This document shows positions 1 to 37,039 of a DNA stretch of 37,699 nt, piece by piece (the first letter of the stretch is position 1; the number at the start of each line of letters is the position of its first letter). Origin of the DNA: Deltaproteobacteria bacterium (GTDB lineage: Bacteria; Myxococcota_A; Polyangia; JACRCY01); NCBI GenBank assembly GCA_016218785.1, contig JACRCY010000058.1, positions 1 through 37,699 on the forward strand, in the 5' to 3' direction. Below the pieces are notes generated by a model. That model saw nothing but the letters and a program-made list of their open reading frames with translations, was not told the origin of the DNA and did not search any database. A program made the translations under genes and the position numbers.

Positions 1-1092
1 CCACGGCCAGTAGCCCGAGACGTGCGCGTAGTGGAACGGCCGGCGCGCGGCCTGCAGCAGGGCCGCGACGAGGTCGCGGCGGCTCTCGCCGGGCAGCCCG
101 ATCATGAAGTAGCCGGTCACCACCAGGCCGCGGCGCTTGGCGGCTGCGATCACGCCCCGCAGGCGCGCGGTCTCGATCGGGCGGCCGAGCTCCTGCCGCA
201 CTCGCTCGCTGCCGCTCTCGACCCCGAGGGCCAGGCGCTGTACCCCCGAGGCGGCCATGTCGTCGAGCAAGTCCTCGTCGAGCAGGTCGGCGCGGACCCC
301 GTTGGGCAGCTCGAGGATCGCGCCCGGGAGCCGGTGCCGAACGCCCTCCAGCAGCGCCGCGAACCAGGCGCGGTCGGCGAGCGGCTGCTCGTCCTCGAGG
401 AAGAAGCCGGTCACGTCCGCGTCGGCGGCCAGCGCGGTCATCTCGTCGAGGACGGCCGCGACGGGCCGGGCCCGGTGGCCGCCGGGCCGCCGGGGGACCG
501 GGCAGAAGGTGCAGGCGAACGGGCAGCCGCGCGATCCCTCGATCGCCGCGTAGCGCCGGCCCGCGCGGAGGGCGTGCCCCGAGTAGGCGGCGAGCGGGAA
601 GACCTCGCGATCGGCCGCGGGGATCCGCCCGGGCCGGAGCACGCCGCCCGGGGCGGTCTGCACGCGGCCGGCCTCTTCTCGGACCCACGCCCCGGCCACG
701 GGGCGCGACGCGCGCTCACCGGCGGCGAGCAGCGCTGGGACCACGGCCTCCGCATCACCCGTGACCGCGGCGTCGGCCCCGCCGGGTCCCACGAACCTGG
801 CCGGCGCGACCGCGGCCGCGGTCCCCACGACCGCCACGCGCCGGACCCCGCGCCGGCGCAGGTCGTCGACGAGGCGGAGGACCGTGCCGACGTTGCGGAT
901 GGAGCTGTCCACGACGGCGAAGCCCGGAGCGGGCCCGGCGAGGCACGCTAGGCCGCCCGGGGCGAGCCGCAGGTCGAGCCCGACGCAGTCGCTCCCGGCC
1001 GCGCGCAGCGCGGTGGCCAGCGACGCGAGGCCGAGCGGGTAGCAGGCCTCGAGCGCCACCTCCGGGGCTACGAGCAGGACGCGGTCGCTCAT
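1..1092 (-). CDS. B12-binding (class B) radical SAM enzyme, 3' end cut by window edge
   Basis: Not in the ORF track because its stop lies beyond position 1. Manual minus-strand translation from ATG 1092..1090 is open to position 1: MSDRVLLVAPEVALEACYPLGLASLATALRAAG... It has a Rossmann-like B12 region (VAVVGTAAAV..GDAEAVV), the rSAM motif IEGSRGCPFACTFC, GVESGSERV and IGLPGES. The start overlaps the upstream stop as ATGA (1089..1092). Confidence 0.85.
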   Translation of the reverse strand, partial: MSDRVLLVAPEVALEACYPLGLASLATALRAAGSDCVGLDLRLAPGGLACLAGPAPGFAVVDSSIRNVGTVLRLVDDLRRRGVRRVAVVGTAAAVAPARFVGPGGADAAVTGDAEAVVPALLAAGERASRPVAGAWVREEAGRVQTAPGGVLRPGRIPAADREVFPLAAYSGHALRAGRRYAAIEGSRGCPFACTFCPVPRRPGGHRARPVAAVLDEMTALAADADVTGFFLEDEQPLADRAWFAALLEGVRHRLPGAILELPNGVRADLLDEDLLDDMAASGVQRLALGVESGSERVRQELGRPIETARLRGVIAAAKRRGLVVTGYFMIGLPGESRRDLVAALLQAARRPFHYAHVSGYWPW

Positions 1093-2558
1093 CGCCGCAC
1101 GAACAGGGTCTTCAGCGCCTGCGCCACCAGGTAGCGCTCGGTCTCGAAGTTGAAGAGGAGGTTGACGTGCTTCAGCCGGGCGTAGCGCAGGAGGTAGCCC
1201 GGCCGCAGCACGAAGGCCCGGTAGAGCCGGCGCTGCCACGTCGCCATCTCGGCATCGCTCTCGGCGGAGAGGTTGCTCGACTTCTCGTAGTGCTGGAATT
1301 CGTCCCAGCGGGCCTCCCGGTCCGCGAAGTAGTGCTCGTAGGCGGTCGAGCCCGGGTAGCAGGTGAAGTTCGCCACCTGCACGATGTCGGGGACGAGCCG
1401 GTGCATCAGGGCCACGGTGCGCTCGAAGTCCACGATGGTCTCGCTCGGGGAGCCGACCAGGAAGAAGGCGACCCGCAGCAGGCCGGCCTCGCGCGCCAGC
1501 CGGAAGGCCGCCTCGATCTCCGGCACGGTCATGCGCTTCTCGAGCGTCTCCAGGATGGGCGGCGAGCCGCTCTCGACCCCGAAGCTGATCGTCGAGCAGC
1601 CGGCCGCGCGCATGGCGCGGAACATCTCCAGGTCGCCGGGGGTGGCGCGTCCCTGCGCCTTCCAAGAGAGGCGCACGCCGCTCGAGCGGATCGCCTCGCA
1701 CAGCTCCATGACGCGGTCGCGACGCAGGTTGAACACGTCGTCGGTGAAGACCAGCACGTTGACGCCGCGCCGCTCGAGGTAGCGCATCTCCTCGACGACG
1801 TTCGCGGCCGCGCGCGCGCGCAGGGGCGTGCCGAAGGAGGTGCGGAGCGTCTTGGAGCAGTAGATGCACGGGAACGGACACCCGCGGCTGCTCTGGATGA
1901 AGCCCCAGCGGTACCGCCCCACGTGGCGCATGGGGTGCAGGTGGCGGTAGAGCCGGCTCCGGAAGAAGTCGTGGCTCGGGTAGGGCAGGGCGTCGAGGTC
2001 GGTGATGAGCGGGCGCTCGCCATGCGAGACCGGCTTGCCGTCCTGGAGGGTGATGGTCCCGCGCACCCGCAGGTCGCCGCCGGAGCGCGCCGCGCCGAGC
2101 ACCTCGGCCACGGTCTCCTCGAACTCCCCGGCGACCCCGACGTCGACGGGCGAGCCCGGGAAGAGCAGCGACTCGGGGACCGCGTCCACGTGCTGCCCGC
2201 AGGCGACGGTGAGCGTCTGCGGACGCGCCTCCTTGGCCGCGCGGGCGAGCCAGAGGAGGTGGTCGGCCGCCGGGGTGATGCCCGAGAGCACGACGACTTC
2301 GGGGCGCGCGCTGCGCAGCGCCTCGGCCACCGCGTCGAGCGTGAAGGCGCCGGTCTCGAGGTCGAGGATGGCGGCGCGGTAGCCCTGGCGACGCGCCAGC
2401 GCGGCCGCGTAGCCGAGGTCCAAGGGGGCCTCGCAGTTCTCGGGGTGCCGCAGGTCGTTGCCCAGCCACGACGGGACTCGCAGCAGCAGCGCGAGCGGCG
2501 CGGCGCCGGAGAGGTCGACGGTGATCCCGAGCGCCCGGTGCAGCAGCTCCTCGAGCAT
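1089..2558 (-). CDS. B12-binding (class B) radical SAM enzyme (BchE/P-methylase-like family)
   Basis: ORF 1089..2756 trimmed to ATG 2558 (MLEELLHRALGITV). The Arg/Pro-rich 66-aa extension lies inside the upstream gene. Motifs: VVVLSGITPAADHLL, LDALPYPSHD, SSRGCPFPCIYC (CX3CX2C), FGVESGSPPILE, FLVGSPSET, C-terminal YRAFVLRPGYLLRY. TGATG 1-nt overlap with the upstream stop. Confidence 0.9.
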   Translation of the reverse strand: MLEELLHRALGITVDLSGAAPLALLLRVPSWLGNDLRHPENCEAPLDLGYAAALARRQGYRAAILDLETGAFTLDAVAEALRSARPEVVVLSGITPAADHLLWLARAAKEARPQTLTVACGQHVDAVPESLLFPGSPVDVGVAGEFEETVAEVLGAARSGGDLRVRGTITLQDGKPVSHGERPLITDLDALPYPSHDFFRSRLYRHLHPMRHVGRYRWGFIQSSRGCPFPCIYCSKTLRTSFGTPLRARAAANVVEEMRYLERRGVNVLVFTDDVFNLRRDRVMELCEAIRSSGVRLSWKAQGRATPGDLEMFRAMRAAGCSTISFGVESGSPPILETLEKRMTVPEIEAAFRLAREAGLLRVAFFLVGSPSETIVDFERTVALMHRLVPDIVQVANFTCYPGSTAYEHYFADREARWDEFQHYEKSSNLSAESDAEMATWQRRLYRAFVLRPGYLLRYARLKHVNLLFNFETERYLVAQALKTLFVRR

Positions 2559-4012
2559 CAGCCAGTCCTCCGCCGCCCGGGCAGCACGCGGCGCAGCTCC
2601 TGGAGCGCGTAGCGCGCCATGGTCAGGTTCGCGGTCGAGACGACGAGCTTGCCGTACTCCCATAGGTAGTGAGGCCGCAGGTAGAGCCGCCGCACCACCC
2701 GGTCGCGCGCGGCGACGAGGTCGTCGTGGGTGCGCGTCCAGGGGAGCCGCACCCACGGCACCGGGCCGCCCGCCACGGACCAGTCCCCCACCAGGGTGCC
2801 CGCGGCGCGCGCCGCGTCGTAGACCGCCGTCCCCGGGTAGGGCGTCAGGATCGAGAAGCCGGCCGTGGTCGGCCGCATGCGCCGCACGACGTCGAAGGTC
2901 TCGCGGATGGTGTCGTCGGTCTCCCCGGGGTAGCCGATGATCCAGCTGGTGTGGCAGTTGATGCCGTGCCGCATGATCGCGGCGGCGCCCGCGAGGAGCT
3001 GGTCGACGGACTCACGCTTGTTCATGGCCTTGAGGATACGCGGCGAGCCCGACTCGGCCCCGACGCTCATCTGGTAGACGTTGGCGGCCAGGGCGGCCCG
3101 GAGCAGCCGGTCGGTGACGACGTCGGCGCGCGACTTGATGCGGAGCGAGATGCCGAGCCGCTCGCGCTCCAGGCGCGCGAAGAAGGTGAGGGCGCGCTCC
3201 TCGCTGGCGGTGAAGTTGGCGTCGAGGATCTCGACGTTGCGGACGCCCAGGTCGCGGAGGCGCTGGAGCTCGTCGAGGCAGCCGTCGATCGAGCGGTAGC
3301 GCATCTGGCGCGCGGGGTTGCAGCAGAAGTGGCAGTCGAACGGGCAGCCCCGGCTCGTGATGAGGCAGTCGATGTGGCGGTGCGGTACCAGCACCGCGTA
3401 GTAGCGCCGCCGCGCGTAGACCTCGGCGACCAGGTCGCGCGCCGGGAGCGGCACCGCGTCGAGGTCGCGGATGGTCTGGTAGCTGCGGTCAGCCGGCTGC
3501 CCCCGTGAGACGAGGCCCGGTACGGGGCCAGGGGGCTCGTCCCCCGCTCCGACGGTGCGGGCGAGCGCGACCAGGCTGTCCTCGGCCTCGCCCACGAGCA
3601 CGTGGTCGATCTCGGGCAGCTCGGCCAGGATCCGCTCGGGCACGGCCGAGGCGTGCGGCCCGCCCGCGACCAGGGTGGCGTCGGGCAGGGCGCGGCGCAG
3701 CGCCCGCACCAGGCGGGCCGTCGCCACCAGGGTCTCGGCGCAGAAGGGGACGCCCACCAGGAACGGGCGTGACCACGCCACCTCGCGAACCACGGCCTCG
3801 TCGTCGAGCCGGAGCGCGTTGGCATCGACCACGCGCGCGTCGAAGCCGGCGCGCTGCAGGCTCGCGCCGAGATAGAGTAGGCCGAGGGGCGGGAAGCACT
3901 TCTGGCCGATCTCGTCGGCGTAGGTCGCCTTGGGGTTGATGAGCGCGACCGCGCCGGCCCTGGTCCCGGTGGCCTTGAGCGTCAGCGTCCTCGCCGCGCC
4001 GGGCGTGGTCAT
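2558..4012 (-). CDS. B12-binding (class B) radical SAM enzyme
   Basis: ORF 2558..4150 trimmed to ATG 4012 (MTTPGAARTLTLK). Motifs: PPLGLLYLGASLQRAGF, LVAGGPHASA, LDAVPLPARD, TSRGCPFDCHFC, VGAESGSPRIL, IIGYPGETDDT, RRLYLRPHYLWEY. ATGA overlap with the upstream DUF362 gene stop (4009..4012). Confidence 0.9.
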   Translation of the reverse strand: MTTPGAARTLTLKATGTRAGAVALINPKATYADEIGQKCFPPLGLLYLGASLQRAGFDARVVDANALRLDDEAVVREVAWSRPFLVGVPFCAETLVATARLVRALRRALPDATLVAGGPHASAVPERILAELPEIDHVLVGEAEDSLVALARTVGAGDEPPGPVPGLVSRGQPADRSYQTIRDLDAVPLPARDLVAEVYARRRYYAVLVPHRHIDCLITSRGCPFDCHFCCNPARQMRYRSIDGCLDELQRLRDLGVRNVEILDANFTASEERALTFFARLERERLGISLRIKSRADVVTDRLLRAALAANVYQMSVGAESGSPRILKAMNKRESVDQLLAGAAAIMRHGINCHTSWIIGYPGETDDTIRETFDVVRRMRPTTAGFSILTPYPGTAVYDAARAAGTLVGDWSVAGGPVPWVRLPWTRTHDDLVAARDRVVRRLYLRPHYLWEYGKLVVSTANLTMARYALQELRRVLPGRRRTG

Positions 4013-5592
4013 GCCCCGCTCCCCCCGGCCACCTTGCTGACGTCGAGGCCCTCGGCGCGCTGCCGGAGGACGCCCCGCAGCGGCCACGGCGTCCGCAGCC
4101 GCATGGCGCCGGTGGGGCACTGCTCGTGGCAGGCGTAGCAGTCGATGCACTTCTCGCTGATGACCGCGCGGCGGCCCTCGAACCGGATGGCGTCAACCGG
4201 GCACACCTCCACGCAGCGGTGCTGTCCCGTGCACCGCGACGGATCGTGCTCCGGGAGCACGATCCGACCCCGCATCCAGTAGTGCGCCCGGGCCGCTAGG
4301 AGGGAGCGCTCCTTCAGGCCCGGCGGGCAGCCTGGCGCGGGCTCGGCGCAGCGCGGGAGCGGGTCGCCCTGCAGCACGGCGCCGTCGAGCGTCGCCGGCC
4401 CGACGCGGCGCTGGGCCGCAGCGCGGATGGTGGGCACGCTGCCCGGGTCGAGTCCGAGCACGCGGGCGCAGGCGACGTCCACGGCGGTCAGGTCGCCCCC
4501 GGCCACCACGAGGCCGGGGCGACGGACGACGGGCTGGTCGCGGCCGTCGCGGCCGGCGAGCGCCCACACGGCGTCCACGACGGCCCCCTCCAGGTGGGCG
4601 CCGCCCGCGTCGAGGGCCAGGAACAGATCGATGATGCCATGCGCGAAGTCGCGGGGCGCGGGCGCCGTCACGTGCAGCGCGCACTTGGTCGCGCCCGGCA
4701 TGACGCCGACCAGGTTCTTCATCGCCGCGGAGATCACGGTGAGCGAGTGCGCCTTGAGCTTGGGCACCTGGACCACGGCGTCCACCTCGAAGAGCACCCG
4801 CGGGAGCACGAACGACCGCCGGATCATGCCGGTCACGGGGACCGTCGCGAAGGGCCCGGCGTCGAGGTTGACCACCGTGCCGCCGGCCGCGCGCACGGCG
4901 GCCGCTACTCCCGACGCCTCGAAGACCTCGTCGGTGAAGCCGAGCAGCCCCGAGGAGTCGCCCACCAGCACCTCGGATCCCGCGGCCACGAGCGCGCCGG
5001 TGAGCGCCCCCACGAAGTCGGGGTGCGTGTTGGTGCACCGCTCGGGCGCGGCCCCCTTCATCAGGTTGGGCTTGAGCAGGACCCGCTTGCCCCGGAGCCG
5101 GTCGCCGAGCCCGGACGAGGCGAGCGCCCGCTCGATGGCGGCGCGACTCTCCGCGTACGTCGCGCAGCCATGCACAGAAACGGTCGGCCCCATCGCGTCG
5201 GGTGCGCGCAGCCGCGCGACCCTCGTCACTCGATACCACGCGCCCCACCCCCGCGCAACTCGGCGGCGCCTCGTCGTCAGTCGGCGCCCCCGCCGGCGCG
5301 GGCCCTCGGCCCAGGTTGCACCCAGCGGGCAGCTGGCGCTAAGGCGCCCGGCCTGAATAGTCTTGCCCACTCGCGCCTGCGCCACGTCGGCGCCGCGCAC
5401 GCGGATAGGACCGTCAGTGCTGCGGATCGTGAGGCGCCCGTCGCTCGCCAGATCGACGAAGCGCTCGGTGACGACGGCGCGGTGGCTCTGCTTCTCCGCG
5501 GGCGGGCGCCGGCGGCCGCAGGAGCAACCGGCGCCGCTGGCGGCGATGACGGCCAGGAGGGCGGTCAGCAGGAAGGACGTCGGACGGCGCAC
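4009..5592 (-). CDS. DUF362-domain protein with C-terminal 4Fe-4S ferredoxin domain; possible Tat/lipoprotein-type N-terminal extension (start uncertain: 5592 or 5193)
   Basis: ORF 4009..5685. The DUF362-like core starts at ATG 5193 (MGPTVSVHGCATYAESRAAIERAL, LLKPNLM, VPKLKAHSLT). Ferredoxin motifs: CVEVCPVDAI and CIDCYACHEQCP. The in-frame upstream segment is coding-like by my hand count of third-position G/C (19/20 at 5521-5580, 16/20 at 5401-5460). After GTG 5592 (AGGA 8 nt upstream) it encodes VRRPTSFLLTALLAVIAASGAGC. Confidence 0.65.
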   Translation of the reverse strand: MRRPTSFLLTALLAVIAASGAGCSCGRRRPPAEKQSHRAVVTERFVDLASDGRLTIRSTDGPIRVRGADVAQARVGKTIQAGRLSASCPLGATWAEGPRRRGRRLTTRRRRVARGWGAWYRVTRVARLRAPDAMGPTVSVHGCATYAESRAAIERALASSGLGDRLRGKRVLLKPNLMKGAAPERCTNTHPDFVGALTGALVAAGSEVLVGDSSGLLGFTDEVFEASGVAAAVRAAGGTVVNLDAGPFATVPVTGMIRRSFVLPRVLFEVDAVVQVPKLKAHSLTVISAAMKNLVGVMPGATKCALHVTAPAPRDFAHGIIDLFLALDAGGAHLEGAVVDAVWALAGRDGRDQPVVRRPGLVVAGGDLTAVDVACARVLGLDPGSVPTIRAAAQRRVGPATLDGAVLQGDPLPRCAEPAPGCPPGLKERSLLAARAHYWMRGRIVLPEHDPSRCTGQHRCVEVCPVDAIRFEGRRAVISEKCIDCYACHEQCPTGAMRLRTPWPLRGVLRQRAEGLDVSKVAGGSGA

Positions 5593-5786
5593 GGTCGGGA
5601 TCCTGGCAGGACACCGTAGCGGCCACGGCTGGTCGGCGGACCCGTGGGAATCGGTGTTACCATGTGCCGATGGTCGGCCGCGCATCCGGGAGGCTCGCGC
5701 CTACGGGGAGCCTCGTGCGGCGGCCCCGCGCGCGCGCACGCACTTGGCATCCACCCTGGCGTCCCCGCCCGACGCTCGCCGTGATC

Positions 5787-9458: not shown

Positions 9459-10216
9459 CGCCGTCGAAGGTGGGTGAGTCGGAAGGCCGCGGCGACCCGC
9501 ACCGCGCCCCAGAACCCTGCGACCAGGTCGCCCGCTCCTACCTTGGAGTCGCCCCCGAGCCGAGGCCCGTAGCGCGTCGGCACCTCGACGATCGCCAGGC
9601 CGCCGTCCACCCAATGGAGGAGCATCTCCAGCATGTAGAGGGGGCCCGTGTGCAGCGGAGCGAAGGAGAGGGCGAGCTCCGCCGCTCGCCGGTTGTAGAA
9701 GCGGTACGTGTTGCTGTGGTCACGAAGGCTCGTGCCCGCGATGGCGCGCACGAGCGCGTTGTACACGAAGCTTGCGAAGCGCCTCACGAGGGGCCGTCCC
9801 GGCGCCACGGCACCCGCGACGTACTTGGACGCCACGACGACGTCGCACCGCTGCGACGCCACCAGGTCCACGCCGTGGCTCAGCTCGCCCGGCGGCTGCG
9901 ACCCGTCGCCGTCCAGGTCGACGAACACCGTGGCGTCCGTGTTGGCGACCAGCCATTCGAGCCCGGCGCGTGAGGCGTCACCCCGATGGCAGCCGGGACC
10001 CGGCTTCGGTCTCTCGAGGAGCACGATCGACGCGCCGGCCTGCGCGAGCCGCCGCACGTAGTCCTGGGTGCCATCGGAGCTGCCGCCGTCCACGACGCAG
10101 ATGGTATGGCGCCGGCCGCGCAGCTCTCCGAGGAGGGTGGGGATCACCTGCTCGAGTGCCTGGCGTTCATTGTAGAGCGGCAGGTTGACCGCCACCGCTG
10201 CCTTGCGCGAGTCCAC
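9446..10216 (-). CDS. GT2-family polyprenyl-phosphate sugar synthase (DPM1/Ppm1/ArnC-like)
   Basis: 256-aa ORF with GTG start. Motifs: VNLPLYNERQALEQ, ICVVDGGSSDGT, VFVDLDGDGSQPP (DxD region), VVVASKY, RRFASFVYNALVR, YRFYNR, MLEMLLH, VEVPTRYGPRLGGDSKV. These fit the dolichyl/polyprenyl-phosphate mannose synthase layout. Confidence 0.85.
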   Translation of the reverse strand: MDSRKAAVAVNLPLYNERQALEQVIPTLLGELRGRRHTICVVDGGSSDGTQDYVRRLAQAGASIVLLERPKPGPGCHRGDASRAGLEWLVANTDATVFVDLDGDGSQPPGELSHGVDLVASQRCDVVVASKYVAGAVAPGRPLVRRFASFVYNALVRAIAGTSLRDHSNTYRFYNRRAAELALSFAPLHTGPLYMLEMLLHWVDGGLAIVEVPTRYGPRLGGDSKVGAGDLVAGFWGAVRVAAAFRLTHLRRRCPG

Positions 10217-11494: not shown

Positions 11495-11679
11495 CTCGCC
11501 CCAGGTGGAGGGCGCCCGTTCACCACCGCGCCCCGCACGCGCCACGACTCTAGCACGAACGCGCGAGGGCAAATAGGCACACTGTCATCGGCGGGTGTAC
11601 GGCTCAGGGCACACGGACTGGCTGGATCCACGCGCGGCGCCCGGCGGCGTTGGTGACCACGGCGCGCTCCAATCCGGGG

Positions 11680-12152: not shown

Positions 12153-12167
12153 GAGTGACGCCGCCCG

Positions 12168-19719: not shown

Positions 19720-19748
19720 TTGACAAGCCCGCGCTCTCGGATCACGAT
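19720..19748 (+). promoter_or_regulatory. Weak promoter candidate upstream of the YVTN gene
   Basis: TTGACA (19720..19725), 17 nt, CACGAT (19743..19748; keeps A2 and T6 only). If real, the transcript would start near GTG 19757 rather than TTG 19748. Confidence 0.2.
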
Positions 19749-23910: not shown

Positions 23911-23993
23911 GACTCGTTCATTCTCCGCGATCTCCCGCGGGTTGTCGAAGGCGCACCGAGCAACCACGGCGTCGGTCCGCAGGTGCCCGGCGG

Positions 23994-31280: not shown

Positions 31281-31405
31281 CTCGGCCTCGCCGCGCGGGG
31301 CGCGGGCCCGGCGCGCCGGAGGCGGTCGCTGGTGCTCCAGTCCGCACCGGAACCTTCGCTCACTGTTCGACGGGCGAGGAGCAACGCGTCACGCTCGACT
31401 GGCTC

Positions 31406-31433: not shown

Positions 31434-31458
31434 CGGAGCGTGCGCGCCGCTGCCTCGC

Positions 31459-31487
31459 TTGACCACCCTCGACACCGGAGGCATGCT
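31459..31487 (+). promoter_or_regulatory. Sigma70-like promoter candidate for the nitrogenase-like operon
   Basis: TTGACC (31459..31464), 17 nt, CATGCT (31482..31487). A CACCGGAG motif lies in the spacer. The strong SD GGAGGGGAG precedes GTG 31532. Confidence 0.3.
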
Positions 31488-31531
31488 GACTGCGTGACGG
31501 ACGAGCCCGCGACGTCCCCCTCGGAGGGGAG

Positions 31532-33538
31532 GTGAGCCGCCGCGACGCCAGCAGCCCGGGCGGGCGTGCCGTCCTGCAGGGCAAGACGCTGGTCGGCGGT
31601 CCCCGGAGTCGCGCGCACTTCGCGGCCCTGCTCGGCCTGGACCGGGTCGCCCCTCTCGGGCAGACCCGCGTCGTCGCCGTCGCCTGGGTCGGCGATCACG
31701 TCGAGATCGAAGTCGCCGGGGTGGACGACCAGAGCGTGGTCTTCTTCCTCGACCGGTTTCAGGCCGACAAGCCACGGCTCTTCGCCACCGAGCACCTGGT
31801 GCTCTACTACCGCGGCGTCGGCATGTGGCCGGAGCTCGAGGAGCGGCTGCGCGCCGTCGAGCTCGGGCGCCTCGGGGAGCGCACCATCGAGGACCTCGCC
31901 GAGTTGATCGCCGCGGACACGGACGTCGACCCGGCCCACGACCGCCCGCCGCGCGTCAGCGCCGAGGGGCAGGACGCCTTCGACCGCCAGTCGCACCTCA
32001 GCACCTGGGCCTCGCCCCACGTCTGGTACCAGTTCTTCGGCGTCGCCGAGATCTGGCGGCAGCGACTCGACTCGCTCGACATCTTCGAGCGGTGCACCTT
32101 CATCCAGCACTGTGACCGCGAGTGCGTGCAGGTCGCGCCGCGCACGTACGTGCCGATGGTCGACGGAGTGTTCTACCCCTGGCTCGAGCGGGTGCGGCGG
32201 ATCGGCCGCGCGCGTCGACGCCCCTCTCCCGCTGTGGGCTCGGCCGCGACCCGGCCGCGGGGAACCGGTGAGCCGTTCGTGGACGATCCGAAGCACTCGA
32301 TGTGCACGACGGACATCACCGAGGCGGACGTGATCCTCGGCTCGCAGGAGAAGCTCGTGCGCGTCCTCGACGACGTGCTGGAGCGCGGCGTGGATCGCAC
32401 GCTGTTCCTGAGCTGCACGTGCGTCCCGTTCGTGACGGGAGAGGACGTGGAGTCGATCGTCAAGCGCTACCGGGCGAAGACCGATCGGCCCTTCTTCTAC
32501 CTCACGACCACCCCGCAATCGAGCGTGGGGGTGTTCCGGGACGTGCTGGTGCACCGGCGCCGGGCGGCCGAGCAGGCGGTCCCGCCCGGCGAGGTGACGC
32601 CGCACGCCGTCAACCTCGTCGGCTTCGCGCGGGATCCGGGGCTCGAGGAGCTCCGGGGGCTGCTCGCCCAGCTGGGGGTCAGTGTCAACGCCGTGTTCGT
32701 CCCCGAGATGGACTCCGCGGTCGTCGACACCCTGCCCCGAGCGTCGCTCCACGTGCTGTACCCGAACGTCCTGTGGCAGAGCATCTACGACCAGCTCCTC
32801 TTCGACTCGCGCATCACCGCGGTCTCGCCGGCGGCGCCGTACGGCGTGGCGGGGACGCAACGATGGCTCGAGAACGTGGCCGCGGCCGTGGGCCTGACGG
32901 TGACGGCTGGCGACGTCGTCGCGCGGGGTCTGGAGCCGCTCCGAGGGGTGTGGGACCGACTGAGGGCCGAGGCCGCCGGCACGCGGCTGGCGTTCGTGGT
33001 GGGCGCGGACGAGGCCTACCGCCTGGGCGACGCCACCACGACCTGGGGCGTGCCGCTGATCCCGATGCTCGAGGAGATGGGCTTCGGGCTCGAGGTCCTC
33101 ATCGGCGTCGCCGATCGTACGGCCGCGCGCGACGTGGCGACGCAGATCAACGCGGTGTTCGCCCACCCGGAGCGCCACGGCATCAGGGCGTTCCGTGACC
33201 GCGCTCGGCTCGACTCGCTCCTCGAGTCGGGGACGTTCGCCGCGGTCTACTCCGATCACCTCTTCGACCGTCGCCTGACCGCGGCGGGCAAGGCGCAGTT
33301 CAGCCTCCAGGAGTTCGAGAAGGGGGTCGGGGGGGCGGTCCGGACCCTCCGCCGCCTGCTGGAGGTGTGCCGGCTGCCGCTGTACCGCCGGTACCGGCGC
33401 CACCTGCCGGCCGCGGCCCAGCCCTACGCCGCGCCCATAACGCGTGGCACGAGGCGAGGGGGCCGCGAGGGGCTCGCGGGGCCGGGCGGTCCCGACAAGC
33501 TCACGGGCCCAGGCGCCCTGGTGGATGGACGACGGTGA
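31532..33538 (+). CDS. Nitrogenase component-1-type oxidoreductase family protein (NifD/NifE/BchN-like) with N-terminal shared module
   Basis: 668-aa ORF; GTG 31532 directly follows GGAGGGGAG. The shared module covers residues ~45-127 (31664..31912). The core reads FIQHCDRECVQ, then SMCTTDITEADVILGSQEKLVRVLDDVLERGVDRTLFLSCTCVPFVTGEDVESIV. This matches the sT.l.E.d.vfGG..kL...i.v..tC....iGDD pattern, followed by Rossmann-like VNLVGF and LAFVVGAD segments. Confidence 0.75.
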   Translation: MSRRDASSPGGRAVLQGKTLVGGPRSRAHFAALLGLDRVAPLGQTRVVAVAWVGDHVEIEVAGVDDQSVVFFLDRFQADKPRLFATEHLVLYYRGVGMWPELEERLRAVELGRLGERTIEDLAELIAADTDVDPAHDRPPRVSAEGQDAFDRQSHLSTWASPHVWYQFFGVAEIWRQRLDSLDIFERCTFIQHCDRECVQVAPRTYVPMVDGVFYPWLERVRRIGRARRRPSPAVGSAATRPRGTGEPFVDDPKHSMCTTDITEADVILGSQEKLVRVLDDVLERGVDRTLFLSCTCVPFVTGEDVESIVKRYRAKTDRPFFYLTTTPQSSVGVFRDVLVHRRRAAEQAVPPGEVTPHAVNLVGFARDPGLEELRGLLAQLGVSVNAVFVPEMDSAVVDTLPRASLHVLYPNVLWQSIYDQLLFDSRITAVSPAAPYGVAGTQRWLENVAAAVGLTVTAGDVVARGLEPLRGVWDRLRAEAAGTRLAFVVGADEAYRLGDATTTWGVPLIPMLEEMGFGLEVLIGVADRTAARDVATQINAVFAHPERHGIRAFRDRARLDSLLESGTFAAVYSDHLFDRRLTAAGKAQFSLQEFEKGVGGAVRTLRRLLEVCRLPLYRRYRRHLPAAAQPYAAPITRGTRRGGREGLAGPGGPDKLTGPGALVDGRR

Positions 33539-34905
33539 GCGAGCCGACGCACGGGGCGGCAGGACCCGAGGGGGTGGCCCCGTCGAACGCGGCCGACTGG
33601 TCGGACCGCGTCTCGCTCACCTTCACCATCGGCGTCTACGTCGCGATCAACGCGCTGCGCGACGCGTACTGCATCGTGGACGGACCCGACTGCGCCCACC
33701 TGAAGACCCAGTTCCTGCAGGGCAACCACGACTGGCTCGCCGACCTGACGAGCGTCACCGGGGTCCACCGCATCGCCAACACCGACCTGCACCCCTGGAA
33801 GATGGTGCTGGGTCGCGACGAGGCGGTGGAGGGGTTCCTGCGCCAGATGGCGAGCTTCGACGGGGCCGCGGCGGTCCTCATCACGTCGCTGCCCATGGCG
33901 ACGATCACCGGGCTCGACTACGACCGCGTCACGCGCACGGTCGGCCTCGAGACCGGCACGGTGGTCGCGAGCGTGCCGAGCGCCTCGCTCGCCGGCGACT
34001 GGCTCGACGGCTACGCCGCGACGCTCAAGACGCTCGCGCGGGCCGTGGACCTGGACGGCGCGGCGCCGCAGCCGGGCAACGTCGCCGTGGTCGGATACCT
34101 GCTGGACCGGCACGAGGGGGACCACCGGGCGAACCTGGCCGAGATGCGTCGCCTCCTGGAGGGGCTCGGGCTGCGCCTGGGATCGGTGTGGCTGTCGGGG
34201 GGCAGCGTCGCCGAGTTGGGCGAGGTGCGGCACGCGAGCGCGATCGTCTCGCTGCCCTACGGCCGCGAGGCCGCGACGATCCTGGCCCGCCGGCTCGGGC
34301 TGCCGCTCATCGAGACGGGGCTGCCGCTCGGCCTCGACGGCACGGAGCGATGGCTGCGGCAGCTCGCGGAGCCACTCGGATGCGCCGACCGCGTCGACCA
34401 GGTCGTCGCGCCCGAGCTCGCGCGTGCCGTGCCCAGCATCGAGTGGGTGGTGCCGTACCACCTGTTGCACCGACGCGTGGTCTTCGTCGGGGACCCTCAC
34501 CTGGGTCTCGCCCTCGACGAGGCGGCGGGTGAGGTCGGGCTGACGGTCGAGCGCCATGTGATCCTCAACCGCCGGGGCCACGCCGAGGCGCTCCTCCGCC
34601 GCTGCGGCGAGGAGCGGGTCGTCCTCGACCCCAAACGGAACACGCTGCAGCAGGTCCTGGCGCCGCTGTTCCACGACGGTGGCTGCGACCTCCTGGTGAC
34701 GAGCAGCCTGGGGGTGACACCAGGCCTGGGAGGGGCCGCCATCGTCGAAGTCGGGTTCCCGTCCTTCTTCACGCACGCGCTCGAAGACCGGCCGTTCCTC
34801 TTCTTCCGCGGCTTCGTCGCGCTCGTCGAGCGGATGGTGAACGAGCTGCGCCGGGCGGAGCTGACCGCTTCGCTGCTCGGCGAGACTCCTGGCCCGGCTG
34901 ACTAG
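33535..34905 (+). CDS. Nitrogenase component-1-type oxidoreductase family protein (NifK/NifN/BchB-like), divergent
   Basis: Frame of ORF 33367..34905 trimmed to GTG 33535 (VSEPTHGAAG), a GTGA overlap with the upstream stop. Motifs: GVYVAINALRDAYCIVDGPDCAHLK (HGxxGC-like position), IANTDLHPWKMVLGRDEAVEGFL, AAVLITSLPMATITGLDYDRV (the usual Cys and GDD are replaced), NVAVVGYLL, RVVFVGDPHLGLAL. Confidence 0.7.
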   Translation: MSEPTHGAAGPEGVAPSNAADWSDRVSLTFTIGVYVAINALRDAYCIVDGPDCAHLKTQFLQGNHDWLADLTSVTGVHRIANTDLHPWKMVLGRDEAVEGFLRQMASFDGAAAVLITSLPMATITGLDYDRVTRTVGLETGTVVASVPSASLAGDWLDGYAATLKTLARAVDLDGAAPQPGNVAVVGYLLDRHEGDHRANLAEMRRLLEGLGLRLGSVWLSGGSVAELGEVRHASAIVSLPYGREAATILARRLGLPLIETGLPLGLDGTERWLRQLAEPLGCADRVDQVVAPELARAVPSIEWVVPYHLLHRRVVFVGDPHLGLALDEAAGEVGLTVERHVILNRRGHAEALLRRCGEERVVLDPKRNTLQQVLAPLFHDGGCDLLVTSSLGVTPGLGGAAIVEVGFPSFFTHALEDRPFLFFRGFVALVERMVNELRRAELTASLLGETPGPAD

Positions 34906-36422
34906 AAATCGTGGACGAAGTAGGGCCGGTCGCGGCTCTCGACCCAACGCGCGAAGACCTCCTCGCGGAGCCGCTCGTCCCCCGCGCCGAGCAACTGGAA
35001 GAGGTGGTCCATGAGGCCCATGTGGATCCGGCACTTCTGGTTGTCGGCCATCCGGCCGAAGATGTTCCCCTGCGTCGAGTAGTTGAAGACCGGGCAGGTG
35101 CCGCAGAAGGGCAGGTAGGCGCAGTCGGCGCAGCCGGGCAGCCCCTCGAGGCACGAGGCCAGCGCCACCGAACGGACGACCGGGCTCTCGATGAGATCGC
35201 CGTAGCCATCGTGTTCCAGGTTCCCGATCTGGAAGACCGAGTCGCCCATCTGGTGGAGCATGCGCGCCTCGTCGCAGCAGAAGACGGCGCCGTCGAAGCT
35301 GTAGGCGATCTGGCCGATCCCCGCCCCGCAGGGCGAGCGGATGTCGAGGTAGTTGGGGTCGTCGCCGGTGAGGATCTTCACCAGGAAGATGGTCGCCAGC
35401 CGCTCCAGGATCTCCTTGCCCTCGAGGTTGAGCGCGATGATGTAGTCGAGCGCCTCGCGGTGGAAGGCCAGGAACTCCTCGGCGCCGTAGCCGATGCGGC
35501 CCGCCGTCTTGCGCGCGAAGCCGAAGGGGTTCAGCGGCCGGAGGAAGACCGCCTTGAGCCCGCGCTTCACGTACTCGTCGACGATGTCGCGGGCGCGCCC
35601 CAGCGACTGGCGCGTGACCGTGAGCAACGCCTCGACGTGGTAGAGCGCCGGGTCGAGGCCGCGGTCCAGGTACCCCTGGTCGATGCGCTCCATCCAGCGC
35701 AGCGTCGCGGCGTGGGAGTTGCCGTGCGCCAGGGGGCGGTTGGCGTTGTGGAGATCCTCGGGGCCGTCGAGCGACGTGCAGACCTGGATGCCGTGATCCA
35801 GGATGAAGGCGAGCTTCTCGTCGTCCATCAGGCTCAGGTTGGAGACGAGCGAGAAGGCCAGGGTCTTGCGCACCGTGGCGTTGAGCTCGAGCGCCTTCTC
35901 TACGGTGTGGCGGACGACGGCGAAGTTCGCGAGCGGCTCGCCGCCCTGGAACTCGAGGGTGATGGAGGGGGCCGGGGTCTGCATGGCCACCTGCACCGCC
36001 CGCTCGGCGACCTCGGGGGACATGTCGAACTCGGTCGCGTCCATCGGCCGGCGGCTGGCGTGGCAGTAGACGCAGGCCTGGTTGCAGCGGAGCGAGGTGA
36101 TGAGCACGTGGAGGTAGGGGCCCAGGCCGAGGAACGCCTTGCGCTGGGCGAGCTGCGCGGTCCGTTCCTCCTCCCCCTGTCCTCCCTGGAGGAACCCGGC
36201 CTCGAGGAGGCGCGTGCGGAGGTTCCCGTCCGGCGCGAAGTTGCCGGAGACCAGCTGCTCGAACTCCGCCTCGCTCAGGAGCTGGTAGGAGCCGCCGTCG
36301 TTCGTCAGCAGCACCTGGCCGCCGAGGTGGCGGAAGCGGAAGTGGTTGCTGCGCTGGAGGCCGGGGTACCCGGAGGCGGGTGGCGCCACGCCGAGCGGGG
36401 CCGGGCGGTCGGGCGCGGTCAT
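34902..36422 (-). CDS. Radical SAM / SPASM-domain maturase, AnSME family, HxsB-like N-terminus
   Basis: ORF 34902..36938 trimmed to ATG 36422 (MTAPDRPAPLG), an ATGA overlap with the upstream stop. N-terminal region: NHFRFRHLGGQVLLTNDGGSYQLLSEAEFEQLVSGN. rSAM motif: ITSLRCNQACVYCHAS, with LEFQGGEPLAN. SPASM cysteines: SPCGAG..DGAVFCCDE and LPGCADCAYLPFCGTCPV. Confidence 0.88.
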   Translation of the reverse strand: MTAPDRPAPLGVAPPASGYPGLQRSNHFRFRHLGGQVLLTNDGGSYQLLSEAEFEQLVSGNFAPDGNLRTRLLEAGFLQGGQGEEERTAQLAQRKAFLGLGPYLHVLITSLRCNQACVYCHASRRPMDATEFDMSPEVAERAVQVAMQTPAPSITLEFQGGEPLANFAVVRHTVEKALELNATVRKTLAFSLVSNLSLMDDEKLAFILDHGIQVCTSLDGPEDLHNANRPLAHGNSHAATLRWMERIDQGYLDRGLDPALYHVEALLTVTRQSLGRARDIVDEYVKRGLKAVFLRPLNPFGFARKTAGRIGYGAEEFLAFHREALDYIIALNLEGKEILERLATIFLVKILTGDDPNYLDIRSPCGAGIGQIAYSFDGAVFCCDEARMLHQMGDSVFQIGNLEHDGYGDLIESPVVRSVALASCLEGLPGCADCAYLPFCGTCPVFNYSTQGNIFGRMADNQKCRIHMGLMDHLFQLLGAGDERLREEVFARWVESRDRPYFVHDF

Positions 36423-37039
36423 GGCGCCTCGCCTCCGGTTCCCTTCTTGGCGTCGTCGGTGGCGGTCGCGGCGGCCGGCGCCGCGGCGTGATCGGTCGCG
36501 GGGGCGCTCGGCGCCTCGGCTGGCGGGGTCGCGGCCGGATCGGCCTTGCCGGCGAAGCGCTGCTCCCACGGCACGCCGATACCGAGCGGATCGGCGAAGA
36601 AGTCGTCCTCCTCCCCGGGTACGTCGGGCGAGCCGGCGAGCTCCTTGTCGAGGTGCTCGACCTCGTCGGCGCCCACCCCTTCGTCTGCGGCGGCGTCGCG
36701 GCCCTCGGGGACGGCGCCGAAGAGCGCCCGCGCCATGATGCTCTCTCGCGCCTTCTCGTGCTGCTGGTCGACGTAGTGCCTCAACGCCTGGCTCAGGAGC
36801 TCGTTCTGGAAATCGGCGGCCACGGTCGTCGGCTCGGCGACCGCACCCCCGGCCTTCGGCGACAGCGAGACCCTGACCTTGCCCTCGACCGGCTTGTCGA
36901 GGAACACGTACCAGCGGTCGACGAAGACGTAGCCGCAACCGAAGATCGCGGCGAGCGGGTAGACGGAGAGATCAACGGTGAAATCGACGCTCCCGTTCGG
37001 CGCAGCCGACACCGAAACGCCGTCAGTCAGTTCCAGCAT
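36419..37039 (-). CDS. HxsD-like small protein with ~100-aa acidic, Pro/Ala-rich C-terminal tail
   Basis: 206-aa ORF with ATG 37039. The N-terminal ~105 aa (VDLSVYPLAAIFGCGYVFVDRWYVFLDKP..VRVSLSPK..FQNELLSQALRHYVDQQHEKARESIMARALFG) fit my recollection of the HxsD family pattern (Y..a...aaY.f.d..y..l; F.nellDq.lR). The tail reads DEGVGADEVEHLDKELAGSPDVPGEEDDFFADPLGIGVPWEQRF..PPAEAPSAPATDHAAAPAAATATDDAKKGTGGEAP. Confidence 0.6.
   Translation of the reverse strand: MLELTDGVSVSAAPNGSVDFTVDLSVYPLAAIFGCGYVFVDRWYVFLDKPVEGKVRVSLSPKAGGAVAEPTTVAADFQNELLSQALRHYVDQQHEKARESIMARALFGAVPEGRDAAADEGVGADEVEHLDKELAGSPDVPGEEDDFFADPLGIGVPWEQRFAGKADPAATPPAEAPSAPATDHAAAPAAATATDDAKKGTGGEAP

Follow-up and report, generated by a model that had tools for sequence, protein, structure and literature searches.

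A dense radical SAM gene cluster around a Group-VI-like nitrogenase pair in an uncultured myxobacterium, possibly for Hxs-type peptide maturation

The DNA analyzed here (the window) is an entire contig of 37,699 bp from the metagenome-assembled genome (MAG) of an uncultured myxobacterium, with locus tags of the form HY906_*. GC3 frame analysis of the window called 23 genes, numbered here g1 to g23, which bears out the coordinates given in a preliminary description of this DNA. They encode 13 radical SAM (rSAM) proteins, a nitrogenase-like D/K pair, a DUF362 ferredoxin, a YVTN propeller, HxsB, HxsD, a family-2 glycosyltransferase (GT2), and a sugar dehydrogenase. Genes for rSAM enzymes make up about 1% of a genome, a rate at which roughly 0.2 would be expected by chance among 23 genes, versus the 13 seen. 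Starts and stops of neighboring genes overlap (for example, the g1 start and g2 stop by 4 nt, and the g4 stop with the g3 start), coupling the genes into operons.

The dense rSAM supercluster first noticed from the sequence alone was confirmed with Pfam and NCBIfam profiles, motifs, and synteny. PF04055 matches g1, g2, g3, g9, g10, g11, g13 to g18, and g21, with two domains in g16, and a motif scan finds CX3CX2C in all 13; counting an extra N-terminal CX5CX2C domain in g9, there are 15 rSAM domains, in agreement with the earlier count of 13 proteins and about 15 domains. The nine class-B (B12-type) enzymes proposed earlier were likewise upheld. Six of them (g2, g3, g10, g11, g14, and g17) pass the PF02310 cut-off and g1 falls short of it; neither g13 nor the N-terminal half of g16 has a Pfam B12 match, and the N-terminal regions of both align to B12-rSAM NCBIfam models. 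The N-terminal domain of g9 makes a tenth, class-B-like member. The first of these enzymes, g1 (1..1092, minus strand; PF04055 78.7 bits, PF02310 25.4 bits), has a CPFACTFC motif and has lost its C-terminus at the contig end. Its neighbor g2 (1089..2558, minus; PF04055 84 bits, PF02310 57.3 bits) is distantly HpnJ/BchE-like, the matches to HpnJ (145 bits) and BchE (141 bits) being far under the cut-offs of 578 and 481, and g3 (2558..4012, minus; PF04055 82.6 bits, PF02310 76.4 bits) is a paralogue, 27% identical to g2 over its full length. TIGR04190 is the model that g10 (16393..17838, plus; PF02310 50.2 bits, PF04055 38.5 bits) resembles, at 151 bits and below cut-off. Three paralogues comprise g11 (17835..19547, plus), of the KedN5-like C-methyltransferase type, g14 (22210..23967, minus, with its start at 23967 or 23910; PF02310 62 bits, PF04055 49.7 bits; 35% identity to g11), and the KedN5-like g17 (27646..29433, minus; PF02310 46.5 bits, PF04055 39.6 bits; 32–33% identity to g11 and g14). 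Lastly, g13 (20666..22213, minus; PF04055 66.8 bits) belongs to the class-B lineage and its B12 domain is degenerate, the B12-rSAM models aligning from aa 118.

Four further rSAM domains match the NCBIfam HxsC and HxsC4 models and were described earlier as a CxxCx5CxG family; the motif scan found all four tails, in g15, g18, and the C-terminal parts of g9 and g16. The simplest of these proteins is g15 (23994..25343, minus), with 70.6 bits to TIGR03977 (HxsC) versus a cut-off of 268. A class-B N-half, covered by NF038361 over aa 3–408, is fused in g16 (25340..27646, minus) to an HxsC/HxsC4-like C-half (HxsC 70.7 bits, HxsC4 67 bits), PF04055 matching in two stretches, while g18 (29430..31280, minus) joins an HxsC-like rSAM domain to a class I SAM methyltransferase (PF04055 plus Methyltransf_11/23/25 matches). 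The giant protein g9 (12168..15932, minus; 1242–1254 aa), to which the database protein P0001 is 100% identical, has three regions: a class-B-like rSAM domain with CX5CX2C (aa ~1–510), a Cys-rich DUF483-like domain plus a beta domain (aa ~540–810), and a fused HxsC-like rSAM domain (aa ~850–1254; PF04055 at aa 858–996). Its family has invariant C176, C202, and C205 and a GYPxCC motif. The best Foldseek match of its AF2 model (pLDDT 86) was CysS, at the N-terminal domain (E=1e-5), so this half is predicted to fold like that iterative cobalamin methylase; by sequence the same domain matched OxsB (E=1.4e-6). The noncanonical CX5CX2C domain reported in the giant is present, and these two matches mark it as class-B-like.

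Among the remaining genes, two earlier assignments were confirmed by profiles. The DUF362 protein g4 (4009..5193, minus; PF04015 145.7 bits) has a C-terminal 2x[4Fe-4S] ferredoxin domain matching Fer4 families and is a likely electron donor; its start is probably at 5193 or 5229, as the ORF is open to 5685 and the coding signal in the frame plot stops near 5221. The YVTN-repeat beta-propeller is g12 (19748..20644, plus; TIGR02276 72.5 bits, above cut-off, with a PF21783 match). The proposed glycosylation module was verified only for g7 (9446..10216, minus; PF00535 48 bits), a GT2 of the polyprenyl-phosphate-sugar synthase type with weak PpgS, AglJ, and ArnC-type matches, and g8 (10229..11572, minus), a nucleotide-sugar dehydrogenase (TIGR03026 200.7 bits, above the cut-off of 189.8), because the polytopic membrane proteins g5, g6, and g23 match no family, including no glycosyltransferase family (for g5, in Pfam and NCBIfam). 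By TM scan, g5 (5664..7799, plus) has about 7 TM segments and a signal-like N-terminus, g6 (7902..9458, minus) has about 8, and g23 (37190..37699, plus) is a partial protein truncated by the contig end. Weak matches link g5 to a 437-aa neighbor in the related locus L001 (E=1e-4) and g23 to a 550-aa membrane protein in L030 (E=1e-6). The sugar and membrane genes, together with a PMT_2 protein in L028, would suit a lipid or envelope-glycan pathway in which class-B enzymes methylate or cyclize a polyprenyl, hopanoid-like, or ladderane-like lipid that is then glycosylated, as would weak matches to HpnJ, HpnR, a "lipid biosynthesis B12-binding/radical SAM protein", and the tetraether synthase Tes. 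However, these scores are far below cut-offs and no better than those for class-B enzymes modifying peptides or small molecules, genes for a squalene-hopene cyclase, a prenyltransferase, or fatty-acid or polyketide synthesis are lacking, and HxsB is a member of a peptide-maturase clade. Since g4 to g8 are also without orthologues in related loci, unlike the conserved rSAM and D/K core, a lipid pathway seems very unlikely.

The nitrogenase-like pair was confirmed as two PF00148 proteins, the NflD-like component-1-like subunit g19 (31532..33538, plus; 87.9 bits) and the NflK-like subunit g20 (33535..34905, plus; 152.1 bits). At its N-terminus g19 has a conserved 250-aa extension with an HxDxxC motif. 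H193, D195, C198, C297, and C613 of g19 are invariant, and in an alignment with a solved nitrogenase-like chain C297 falls on the conserved TSCPxxxIGDD motif; its relatives fall into 298 representative clusters at E<=1e-30. Homologues of g20 in Elusimicrobia MAGs are 39–43% identical, and its best relatives among solved structures reach only 71 bits. No NifH-like Fe protein was found in the window, so the pair here possibly does not work as a reductase. No peptide-acting nitrogenase-like enzyme is known. The characterized relatives in Group V and Group IV-B all have tetrapyrroles as substrates, a point in favor of a tetrapyrrole substrate. The name Group VI has been given to nitrogenase paralogs whose loci contain as many as 13 neighboring rSAM genes, some of them with fused B12 domains; these loci were reported from Elusimicrobia, Gracilibacteria, and 14 genomes of Myxococcales (Meheust et al., 2020; bioRxiv 10.1101/765248). 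The locus type is thus not an undescribed system, as had been proposed, although a 2026 review lists Group VI as still uncharacterized (PMC13474568). No paper was found tying Group VI to Hxs peptides.

A tetrapyrrole substrate was guessed for Group VI from phylogeny and gene context (bioRxiv 10.1101/765248), and the guess was repeated in the 2026 review (PMC13474568). Under such a scheme for tetrapyrrole or novel-cofactor synthesis, the D/K pair would reduce a porphyrin-type C=C bond, in the manner of DPOR, COR, and CfbCD, and the class-B enzymes would methylate or cyclize the macrocycle, in the manner of BchE, BchQ, and BchR. The best matches of g2 and g3, though weak, are indeed BchE and HpnJ, and a HemN/ChuW-like rSAM gene after the D/K pair of L030 fits better with a tetrapyrrole. 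Yet the BchE matches are about 140 bits versus a cut-off of 481, Pfam and NCBIfam profiles find no chelatase, uroporphyrinogen or sirohydrochlorin enzyme, or HemN_C in the window, and a B12-binding domain marks an enzyme cofactor and is no sign of a tetrapyrrole substrate. Such a scheme also does not account for HxsB or HxsD, for the HxsC-like enzymes, or for the HxS-repeat precursors encoded in cis in L030, L052, L073, and L101. We therefore regard a tetrapyrrole substrate as unlikely.

The clustering of these genes is not chance. Blocks of them recur in dozens of loci from uncultured Myxococcota, Elusimicrobia, and Oligoflexales. Independent assemblies, which come from different sites, contain the blocks g9-g15-g16-g19-g20, g10-g11-g14-g15-g17 (L003), and g11-g12-g13-g14-g17-g18-g19-g20 (L031). 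The preliminary description had allowed that the rSAM genes might lack co-conservation; the synteny shows the blocks in independent MAGs. Orthologues in L031 include those of g11 (56% identity), g12 (34%, 96% coverage), g13 (57%), and g18 (36%, 98% coverage), and L003 has those of g10 (38%, 94% coverage) and g11 (47%). Full-length g16 orthologues are found in L001, L005, L033, L052, and L073 (30–32%), and in many loci g15 orthologues (36–58%) have a giant or the D/K pair next to them. An assembly chimera or chance juxtaposition of unrelated rSAM genes might be argued from the single MAG contig, the lack of counterparts of g4 to g8, and the presence of g21 and g22 counterparts in only a few related loci; the recurring blocks already contradict it, and GC (0.70–0.75) and GC3 are even along the contig, whose genes are linked by overlaps, making this explanation extremely improbable.

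The SPASM maturase noted earlier is HxsB (g21; 34902..36422, minus), a peptide-modifying rSAM enzyme scoring 527.7 bits with the NCBIfam equivalog TIGR03978 versus a cut-off of 370, and the NCBI name agrees. The small HxsD-like protein g22 (36419..37039, minus) is borderline for TIGR03976 (49.8 bits versus 50) and is 46% identical to the PF27806 HxsD of L033 and 40% to HxsD of L073; in the canonical system HxsD partners with enzymes of the HxsC type. None of the window's frames contains an ORF with His-Xaa-Ser or other tripeptide repeats, and HxsB and g20 end against each other (stops at 34902 and 34905), leaving no room for a precursor after HxsB. In L033, L052, and L073, by comparison, g21 orthologues (64%, 52%, and 49% identity) each lie near a His-Xaa-Ser repeat precursor. 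These NCBIfam HxsA4-type precursors of about 130 aa consist of a leader, 10–30 Ser-His-Gly/Ala repeats, and a terminal Trp, and in Myxococcota the leader has a Tat-like (twin-arginine RRDF) export signal. L033 contains HxsD, HxsB, a g16-like fusion, and two tandem precursors, as well as an HxsD_rel protein, an HxsC4-like rSAM, a GT2, and sugar enzymes. The order in L073 is g16-like, giant paralogue, NifH, g19, g20, HxsD, HxsB, precursor; L052 and L101 likewise have the precursor immediately behind HxsB, at most 10 kb from NifH-g19-g20; and in L014 (Elusimicrobia) it lies beside HxsC-like rSAMs and a giant. L030, on the contig with a g20 orthologue at 66% identity, reads precursor, HxsD_rel (47.5 versus cut-off 41), giant, g19-like, g20-like. 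Its precursor (NF038313 HxsA4 83.5 bits versus 55) has as its best database match P0117 (E=2e-25), which is HY906_08990 of the window's own MAG (HxsA4 42.8 bits, below the cut-off of 55), encoded on another contig and linked to the window through metagenomic binning. No other tripeptide-periodic ORF occurred in more than 100 related loci, and neither a leader peptidase nor a RiPP recognition element was identified. The earlier statement that no substrate gene is recognizable thus holds within the window, but not beside the HxsB/HxsD orthologues or elsewhere in the MAG, and the dismissal of a RiPP fails, as orthologues of HxsB (49–64%) and HxsD (40–46%) sit in loci with a nearby repeat precursor. 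These precursors, with HY906_08990, make it most likely that the scaffold is a ribosomal peptide supplied in trans.

Canonical HxsB, HxsC, and HxsD mature a His-x-Ser protein destined for the periplasm, and the system is one of defense with an exported effector (PMC13128918). The window could accordingly hold a variant HXS anti-phage system, with a matured periplasmic effector blocking phage DNA entry and the extra enzymes decorating it; this concerns biological role and is compatible with Hxs-type maturation. HxsB and HxsD belong to the families concerned and the Myxococcota precursors have their Tat-like signals, but the window is without HxsA in cis or a canonical HxsC (70 bits versus 268), the precursors are short multi-repeat peptides, and some ten extra class-B rSAMs and a nitrogenase-like pair are present. 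PADLOC, in a 2023 release older than HXS, yields only generic rSAM matches. A defense role of this kind is rather improbable.

We favor, with a probability of about 0.55, the reading that the window holds the enzyme set of an expanded Hxs-type peptide-maturation pathway around a Group-VI-like nitrogenase paralogue, with its precursor in trans. What we observed directly is which genes are present, that they are co-conserved, and where precursors occur in relatives and in the same MAG; we infer every chemical step. The substrate would be the short HxsA4-type precursor HY906_08990. Known rSAM enzymes form His-C2-to-C-beta links on three-residue motifs (PMC11499958), and by analogy with these cyclophane synthases HxsB, assisted by HxsD, may introduce a radical cross-link within each His-x-Ser triad, the HxsC-like domains (g9C, g15, g16C, and g18N) carrying out further radical steps. 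The nine to ten class-B enzymes might add repeated C-methyl groups or C-C bonds on the many equivalent triads, and the repeat number would account for the retention of so many paralogues; many such reactions on one scaffold, as first suggested, remain the most sensible chemistry. The DUF362 ferredoxin could supply electrons to the clusters, the D/K pair could perform a difficult low-potential reduction of a modified His-derived unit, with its Fe protein elsewhere or absent, and after Tat export the GT2, sugar dehydrogenase, and membrane proteins may attach sugar. No characterized pathway has a matching gene set, as the preliminary description held; its enzyme density, co-conservation, and chemistry stand, and its claims of novelty, a missing substrate gene, and a non-RiPP product do not. 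If the reading is true, the Group VI branch gains its first candidate substrate.

Among 44 metagenome loci that span 10 kb or more around g20 homologues, only three have an HxS-repeat ORF within 10 kb and only four have HxsB, so many Group-VI-like loci may have another substrate or a distant precursor. The rSAM gene most common beside the nitrogenase-like pair is g15, in 20 of the 44. L030 is one further precursor locus, from a separate search beyond these 44.

The window, a complete contig of a MAG with locus tags HY906_*, has a G+C content of 72%, and third-position GC analysis resolved 23 genes, two of which are cut by the contig ends. The gene inventory of the preliminary description was borne out when all 23 products were scanned against Pfam and NCBIfam. 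The radical SAM (rSAM) domain PF04055 was found in 13 proteins, twice in g16, and all 13 carry CX3CX2C (Pfam); the giant protein g9 (12168–15932, minus strand), which is 100% identical to MBI5477769.1 (NCBI), has an additional N-terminal CX5CX2C domain. A Pfam B12-binding match is present in seven proteins, including g1, where it is below the cut-off; in g2, g3, g10, g11, g14, and g17 both the B12-binding and PF04055 domains score above the Pfam cut-offs. Only through NCBIfam alignments could g13 and the N-terminal half of g16 be placed in the class-B (B12-type) lineage. The class-B arrangement, a B12-binding Rossmann domain followed by a CX3CX2C core, is thus present and cobalamin binding is predicted, with the subfamilies among the window's class-B enzymes being g11/g14/g17, g2/g3, g10, g13, g16N, g1, and g9N. 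A CxxCx5CxG tail is common to g9C, g15, g16C, and g18N, all four of which match HxsC/HxsC4 models weakly; in g18 this HxsC-like domain is followed by a class I methyltransferase. The remaining products include a DUF362 plus ferredoxin protein (g4), a YVTN propeller (g12), a GT2 glycosyltransferase (g7), a nucleotide-sugar dehydrogenase (g8), and three polytopic membrane proteins with no family assigned (g5, g6, and g23), for which a GT-C glycosyltransferase label was dropped when relaxed-threshold Pfam searches gave no match. Start and stop codons overlap in g4-g3-g2-g1, g18-g17-g16-g15, g14-g13, g22-g21, g10-g11, and g19-g20, as expected for operons. No riboswitch or other RNA family reached its Rfam gathering threshold in the window, a tRNA scan was negative, and PADLOC returned only generic viperin-level rSAM matches.

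The clustering of these genes is meaningful. When synteny was scored by tblastn, independently of gene calls, blocks of window genes recurred in independent loci and in metagenomes, the co-conservation that the preliminary description had put forward as a check. The Polyangiales MAG locus L003 has orthologues of g10, g11, g14, g15, and g17 around its giant, and L031 (MAG HY898) has orthologues of g11 (56% identity), g12 (34%), g13 (57%), g14, g17, g18 (36%, full length), g19, and g20. Chance juxtaposition or a chimeric assembly is contradicted by this synteny and is hardly credible as an explanation. A metagenome scan with a g20 profile gave 78 loci, 44 of them at least 10 kb long; among these 44, a g19 partner was found in 42, a NifH-like Fe protein in 31, and a g15-like rSAM in 20, with class-B paralogues in fewer. 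Genes g4–g8 were not kept in these loci. A lipid or glycan pathway would have only sub-threshold matches and such non-conserved sugar genes to recommend it, and is very unlikely. The g19 family is rare but real: at E ≤ 1e-30 it comprises 298 clusters in a set of 1.84 billion representatives.

The products of g19 and g20 both contain PF00148 and are nitrogenase component-1 homologues (a D/K pair). Their best NCBIfam scores are no higher than 49 bits against cut-offs above 320, and their best solved relatives score 71–75 bits. The cluster-ligand region examined contains one conserved cysteine per subunit, C297 in g19 and C53 in g20; most P-cluster cysteines and all FeMo-co ligands are lost. Residues 1–250 of g19 (31532–32280) form a conserved N-terminal extension that stands where NifD holds two of its P-cluster cysteines, and in which H193, D195, and C198 are invariant (IQHCDxEC). 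An Elusimicrobia protein in L029 has a NifH domain fused N-terminal to a D-like part; a NifH-like origin of the g19 extension was rejected, as the extension lacks a P-loop and shows no alignment to the NifH portion of that fusion.

This type of locus, which had been put forward as an undescribed system, has already been published: Group VI nitrogenase paralogues are described from groundwater Elusimicrobia, and also from two Gracilibacteria and 14 Myxococcales genomes, with very divergent NifD/K-like genes that have lost P-cluster cysteines and as many as 13 neighboring rSAM genes, several with fused B12 domains (Meheust et al., bioRxiv 10.1101/765248; 2020, ISME J). In its taxonomy, gene context, and divergence, the window agrees with the published picture. 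It comes from an uncultured Myxococcota-type MAG, contains 13 rSAM genes, and has homologues in Elusimicrobia; no match to NifB, NifE, or NifN in the window reaches its NCBIfam cut-off, and Group VI loci likewise have no NifB. Group VI occurs in several copies per genome, and the window's MAG has at least three paralogous D/K loci (63–65% identity to g20), two further g20 paralogues being P0057 (HY906_04875) and P0065 (HY906_02605). These D/K loci and one His-x-Ser precursor all lie on separate contigs, so this contig contains only part of the full system. Membership in Group VI is suggested by taxonomy, gene context, and the 33–43% identity of g19 and g20 to their Elusimicrobia homologues. 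In contrast, the group was defined on the phylogeny of its NifH-like Fe protein, whereas tblastn found no NifH-like gene in the window. Where such a gene accompanies the pair in related loci (the 31 of 44), it is a true Fe-protein homologue immediately upstream (for example, L001:4781–5593 and L073:4361–5170). The nearest relative, L028 (66% identity to g20), also has no NifH-like gene beside the pair; in the clade of the window and L028, the Fe protein may be borrowed from another locus, or the D/K pair may be used differently.

The role proposed for Group VI is tetrapyrrole reduction yielding a new cofactor (bioRxiv 10.1101/765248), an idea repeated in a 2026 Chemical Reviews article; that review states that Group VI lacks a characterized member, finds gene context of little help, and names the Group VI substrate as a main open problem (PMC13474568). 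Group VI is the only such branch of the nitrogenase superfamily. A tetrapyrrole substrate would agree with the behavior of Groups IV-B and V, with weak BchE-like scores, and with a HemN/ChuW-like rSAM that follows the D/K pair at L030:11472–12977, the only neighbor seen to favor such a substrate. It is nevertheless unlikely for the present system, since no tetrapyrrole gene is present and since the Hxs components found in the same loci, together with the His-Xaa-Ser (HxS) repeat precursors that relatives of the window carry there, would be left unexplained. No mention of Hxs components was found in the available portions of the two Group VI papers (bioRxiv 10.1101/765248; PMC13474568).

[quoted passage not shown] In the window, g21 is an HxsB by both its NCBI name and its TIGR03978 score of 527.7 bits against a cut-off of 370, covering residues 26–494 of 506; it also weakly matches the cyclophane synthases AmcB, GrrM/OscB, YhhB, FxsB, and XyeB. 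The neighboring g22 scores 49.8 bits against the HxsD model TIGR03976 (cut-off 50), is 46% identical to the PF27806 gene of L033, and carries a long acidic, Pro/Ala-rich tail that is missing from the 90-residue HxsD model. No canonical HxsC (TIGR03977) is present, the best scores being 70.7 bits for g16C and 70.6 bits for g15 against a cut-off of 267.9, and neither g15 nor g16 adjoins HxsB. Scores against HxsC4 (NF038332) are 67 bits for g16C and 35 bits for g9C, with a cut-off of 500; a 321-residue rSAM of L001 aligns with this model end to end.

The HxsA/B/C/D set was reportedly defined bioinformatically by Haft and Basu. With HXS the window's system shares an HxsB above the equivalog cut-off and the order HxsD-HxsB, its HxsD being borderline; HxsC-type rSAMs that would pair with HxsD, and a putative substrate of tandem His-x-Ser triads that would be exported to the periplasm, are further parallels. 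The operon order D-B-C-A is not found in the window, which differs in having neither HxsA in cis nor a canonical HxsC; it has instead four divergent domains of HxsC/HxsC4-like type, of which three occur in fusions, and adds 9–10 class-B rSAMs and the nitrogenase-like pair. The hosts of HXS are Gammaproteobacteria rather than Myxococcota, and its substrate is a peptidoglycan-binding protein with five repeats, whereas here it would be a peptide of about 130 residues with 10–30 SHG/SHA repeats and a terminal Trp. An anti-phage variant of HXS, which would be a biological role compatible with the peptide model, is therefore rather improbable: of its four defining features HxsB is found, HxsC and HxsA are not, and HxsD falls just short of the cut-off. 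Another related system is the rare Hxs variant curated in NCBIfam as HxsA4, HxsC4, and HxsD-like (NF038313, NF038332, and NF038315); a literature search for these names found no publication. The precursor and HxsD-like protein of L030 score above the cut-offs of this variant, and g16C and g9C match HxsC4, but these two domains fall far under the HxsC4 cut-off and the MAG's own precursor falls under that of HxsA4.

No H-x-S repeat occurs in any frame of the window, so the earlier statement that it holds no precursor stands; the conclusion that a RiPP was thereby ruled out does not, as precursors with leader and core lie beside maturases in related loci and one is encoded in trans in the same MAG. 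In L030, on the same metagenome contig as L028, a 156-residue precursor (L030:4309–4779) with a twin-arginine-type signal (RRDFVMRSPIAALVVAAGG) and the C-terminus HCSHASHASHGSHGSH...GSW is followed by an 87-residue HxsD-like protein, a 963-residue giant, and the D/K pair. This precursor is an HxsA4 (NF038313, 83.5 bits against a cut-off of 55), and its neighbor matches HxsD_rel (NF038315, 47.5 bits against 41). The best match of the L030 precursor among 5.8 billion proteins is P0117 (HY906_08990), encoded on another contig of the window's own MAG; it has 131 residues, an RRDF signal, and SHCSHASHGSHGSHGSHASHGSHGSHGSW at its end, and scores 42.8 bits against HxsA4 (cut-off 55). In L073, which adds sequence for the organism behind L001, the genes run g16-like gene, giant paralogue, NifH, g19, g20, HxsD, HxsB, and precursor, the last a 106-residue ORF (L073:11689–12009) ending in (HGS)n-W. 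Precursors at L052:17365–18162 and L101:336–746 likewise adjoin HxsB, with NifH-g19-g20 lying no more than 10 kb away. The slot that the precursor takes in L052 and L073 is closed in the window, where the stop codons of HxsB and g20 abut. Two tandem precursor copies are found at L033:8916–9829, a locus with HxsD (46% identical to g22), HxsB (64% to g21), a full-length g16-like fusion, an HxsD-like protein, an HxsC4-like rSAM, a GT2, and a sugar epimerase/aminotransferase, and an Elusimicrobia precursor of about 30 repeats (L014:3–446) lies beside HxsC-like rSAMs and a giant. No other tripeptide-periodic ORF was found in any of 111 loci.

These precursors (P0117–P0119 and those of L030, L033, L052, L073, L101, and L014) end in Gly-Ser/Gln-Trp-stop, the exceptions being P0121 and the truncated P0173. 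Their leaders differ: the RRDF forms of Myxococcota are Tat-like, those of Elusimicrobia and Omnitrophota have a hydrophobic anchor, and those of L052 and L073 are short, hydrophilic, and signal-less. P0121, which ends in SHAR, was not counted as a member of the system because its neighborhood (L032) is unrelated. Around the D/K pair in the 44 metagenome loci, a precursor lies within 10 kb in only three, in addition to L030, and HxsB is present in only four; the peptide link is proven in this subset, and for the other loci it is an extrapolation. The assignment of HY906_08990 as the trans precursor for the window's cluster would depend on correct binning.

The first 510 residues of the giant fold as a class-B enzyme (AF2 model, pLDDT 86); the best Foldseek match of this part is the iterative cobalamin methylase CysS (E = 1e-5), and a sequence search with it finds OxsB. 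The next region (13383–14279, residues ~540–838) contains a DUF483-like domain (pLDDT 89) with invariant residues in GYPxCC...C...C, followed by a beta domain with FxWWH. Foldseek found no significant solved relative of the DUF483-like domain, the best matches being 2guk (E = 0.03) and the Cys-methyltransferase NleE (E = 0.1). Homologues of the first 800 residues come from uncultured genomes only, in Polyangiaceae, other Myxococcales, Bradymonadales, Anaeromyxobacteraceae, Oligoflexales, and Elusimicrobia. In eight loci giant homologues occur alongside g19-like and g20-like genes, usually with a g15-like rSAM directly downstream of the giant and a g16-like fusion nearby.

The conserved set thus consists of HxsB, HxsD, and HxsC-like maturases, class-B rSAMs, and the nitrogenase-like pair; His-x-Ser repeat peptides go with this set, in cis in certain genomes and in trans in the present one. 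We put the probability that a His-x-Ser peptide is the substrate of the window's system at about 55%; the individual chemical steps are much less certain. Proteusin pathways (polytheonamide, PoyB/PoyC) and CysS offer a parallel, as their class-B rSAMs add many C-methyl groups to one peptide or carrier-bound substrate. CysS is also the best structural match of the N-terminal half of g9, but those pathways use one to three class-B enzymes in the context of a nitrile-hydratase-like leader or an NRPS, neither of which is found here. We know of no HxsB for which a cross-link has been demonstrated. HxsB-related SPASM rSAMs make cyclophanes on three-residue motifs, including His-C2-to-C-beta links; among them, the triceptide maturases HaaB and HtkB act on a His-first motif repeated in the core, although their identity to HxsB is low and their clusters have a single rSAM and no class-B or nitrogenase-like enzymes (PMC11499958). 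From this chemistry and from canonical HxsB/C/D maturation, it is proposed that every H-x-S triad would be cross-linked by HxsB and HxsD. Additional radical steps would fall to the four HxsC-like domains, repeated C-methyl groups or C-C bonds would come from the nine to ten class-B enzymes, and the class I methyltransferase of g18 would methylate heteroatoms. Electrons would be supplied by g4, and the modified imidazole-derived unit would be reduced at low potential by the D/K pair, acting with an Fe protein that comes from outside the window. The Tat-type signal would direct export after maturation in the cytoplasm, and g7, g8, and the membrane proteins may add sugars thereafter.

The system would thus bring together Hxs-type peptide maturation, a Group-VI-like nitrogenase paralogue, and class-B rSAMs in unprecedented number; each part is of a known kind (class-B rSAMs, Hxs components, Group VI NFL proteins), and the combination would be new. 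A broader proposal, which we hold only tentatively, is that Group VI proteins are not tetrapyrrole reductases but an ATP-driven nitrogenase-type reductase in a ribosomal-peptide pathway that, with about 15 rSAM domains, would make from poly(Ser-His-Gly) a His-derived product that is repetitive, cross-linked, reduced, and heavily C-methylated; after export by Tat, this product could act as a cofactor, a metal binder, an envelope polymer, or a defense effector. If true, this would be the first nitrogenase homologue to act on a peptide, in the most rSAM-rich RiPP-like pathway known. A His-Xaa-Ser repeat peptide of about 130 residues with a defined enzyme set gives Group VI a concrete candidate substrate, and the question is thereby opened to heterologous co-expression and mass spectrometry, the host being uncultured. 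Confirmation would extend nitrogenase-type ATP-driven reduction to peptide chemistry, reveal the role of nine to ten class-B rSAMs on one repetitive scaffold, and tie HXS, as an anti-phage system, to a peptide-maturation family of far greater size and age; refutation would strengthen the tetrapyrrole idea and leave the Hxs genes as a separate neighboring system.

Several further observations concern individual genes. The family defined by the N-terminal part of g9 (CX5CX2C class-B-like rSAM plus DUF483-like Cys domain, ~940 residues) is multi-copy, with two to three members each in L001, L005, and L023. It also occurs in L009, L016, L017, L018, and L024, in neighborhoods with no detectable homologue of other window genes, and is therefore not exclusive to the nitrogenase-like pair. 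The gap of about 600 nt between g8 and g9 (11573–12167) has no coding signal. A minus-strand ORF at 11680–12183, whose end (...NWEWTSSPSG...ALAFRCCCTWR) resembles the end of an FGE-sulfatase domain, was the only intergenic candidate for a small precursor and was rejected, having no Pfam match, coding signal, or conservation in related loci; the gap, with this ORF, may represent the remains of a gene or have a regulatory function. The g4 ORF is open for 150 codons upstream of the DUF362 domain (5194–5685), where the coding signal is poor. Translation probably starts at 5193 or 5229, and g4 and g5 would then share a divergent intergenic region of about 470 nt.
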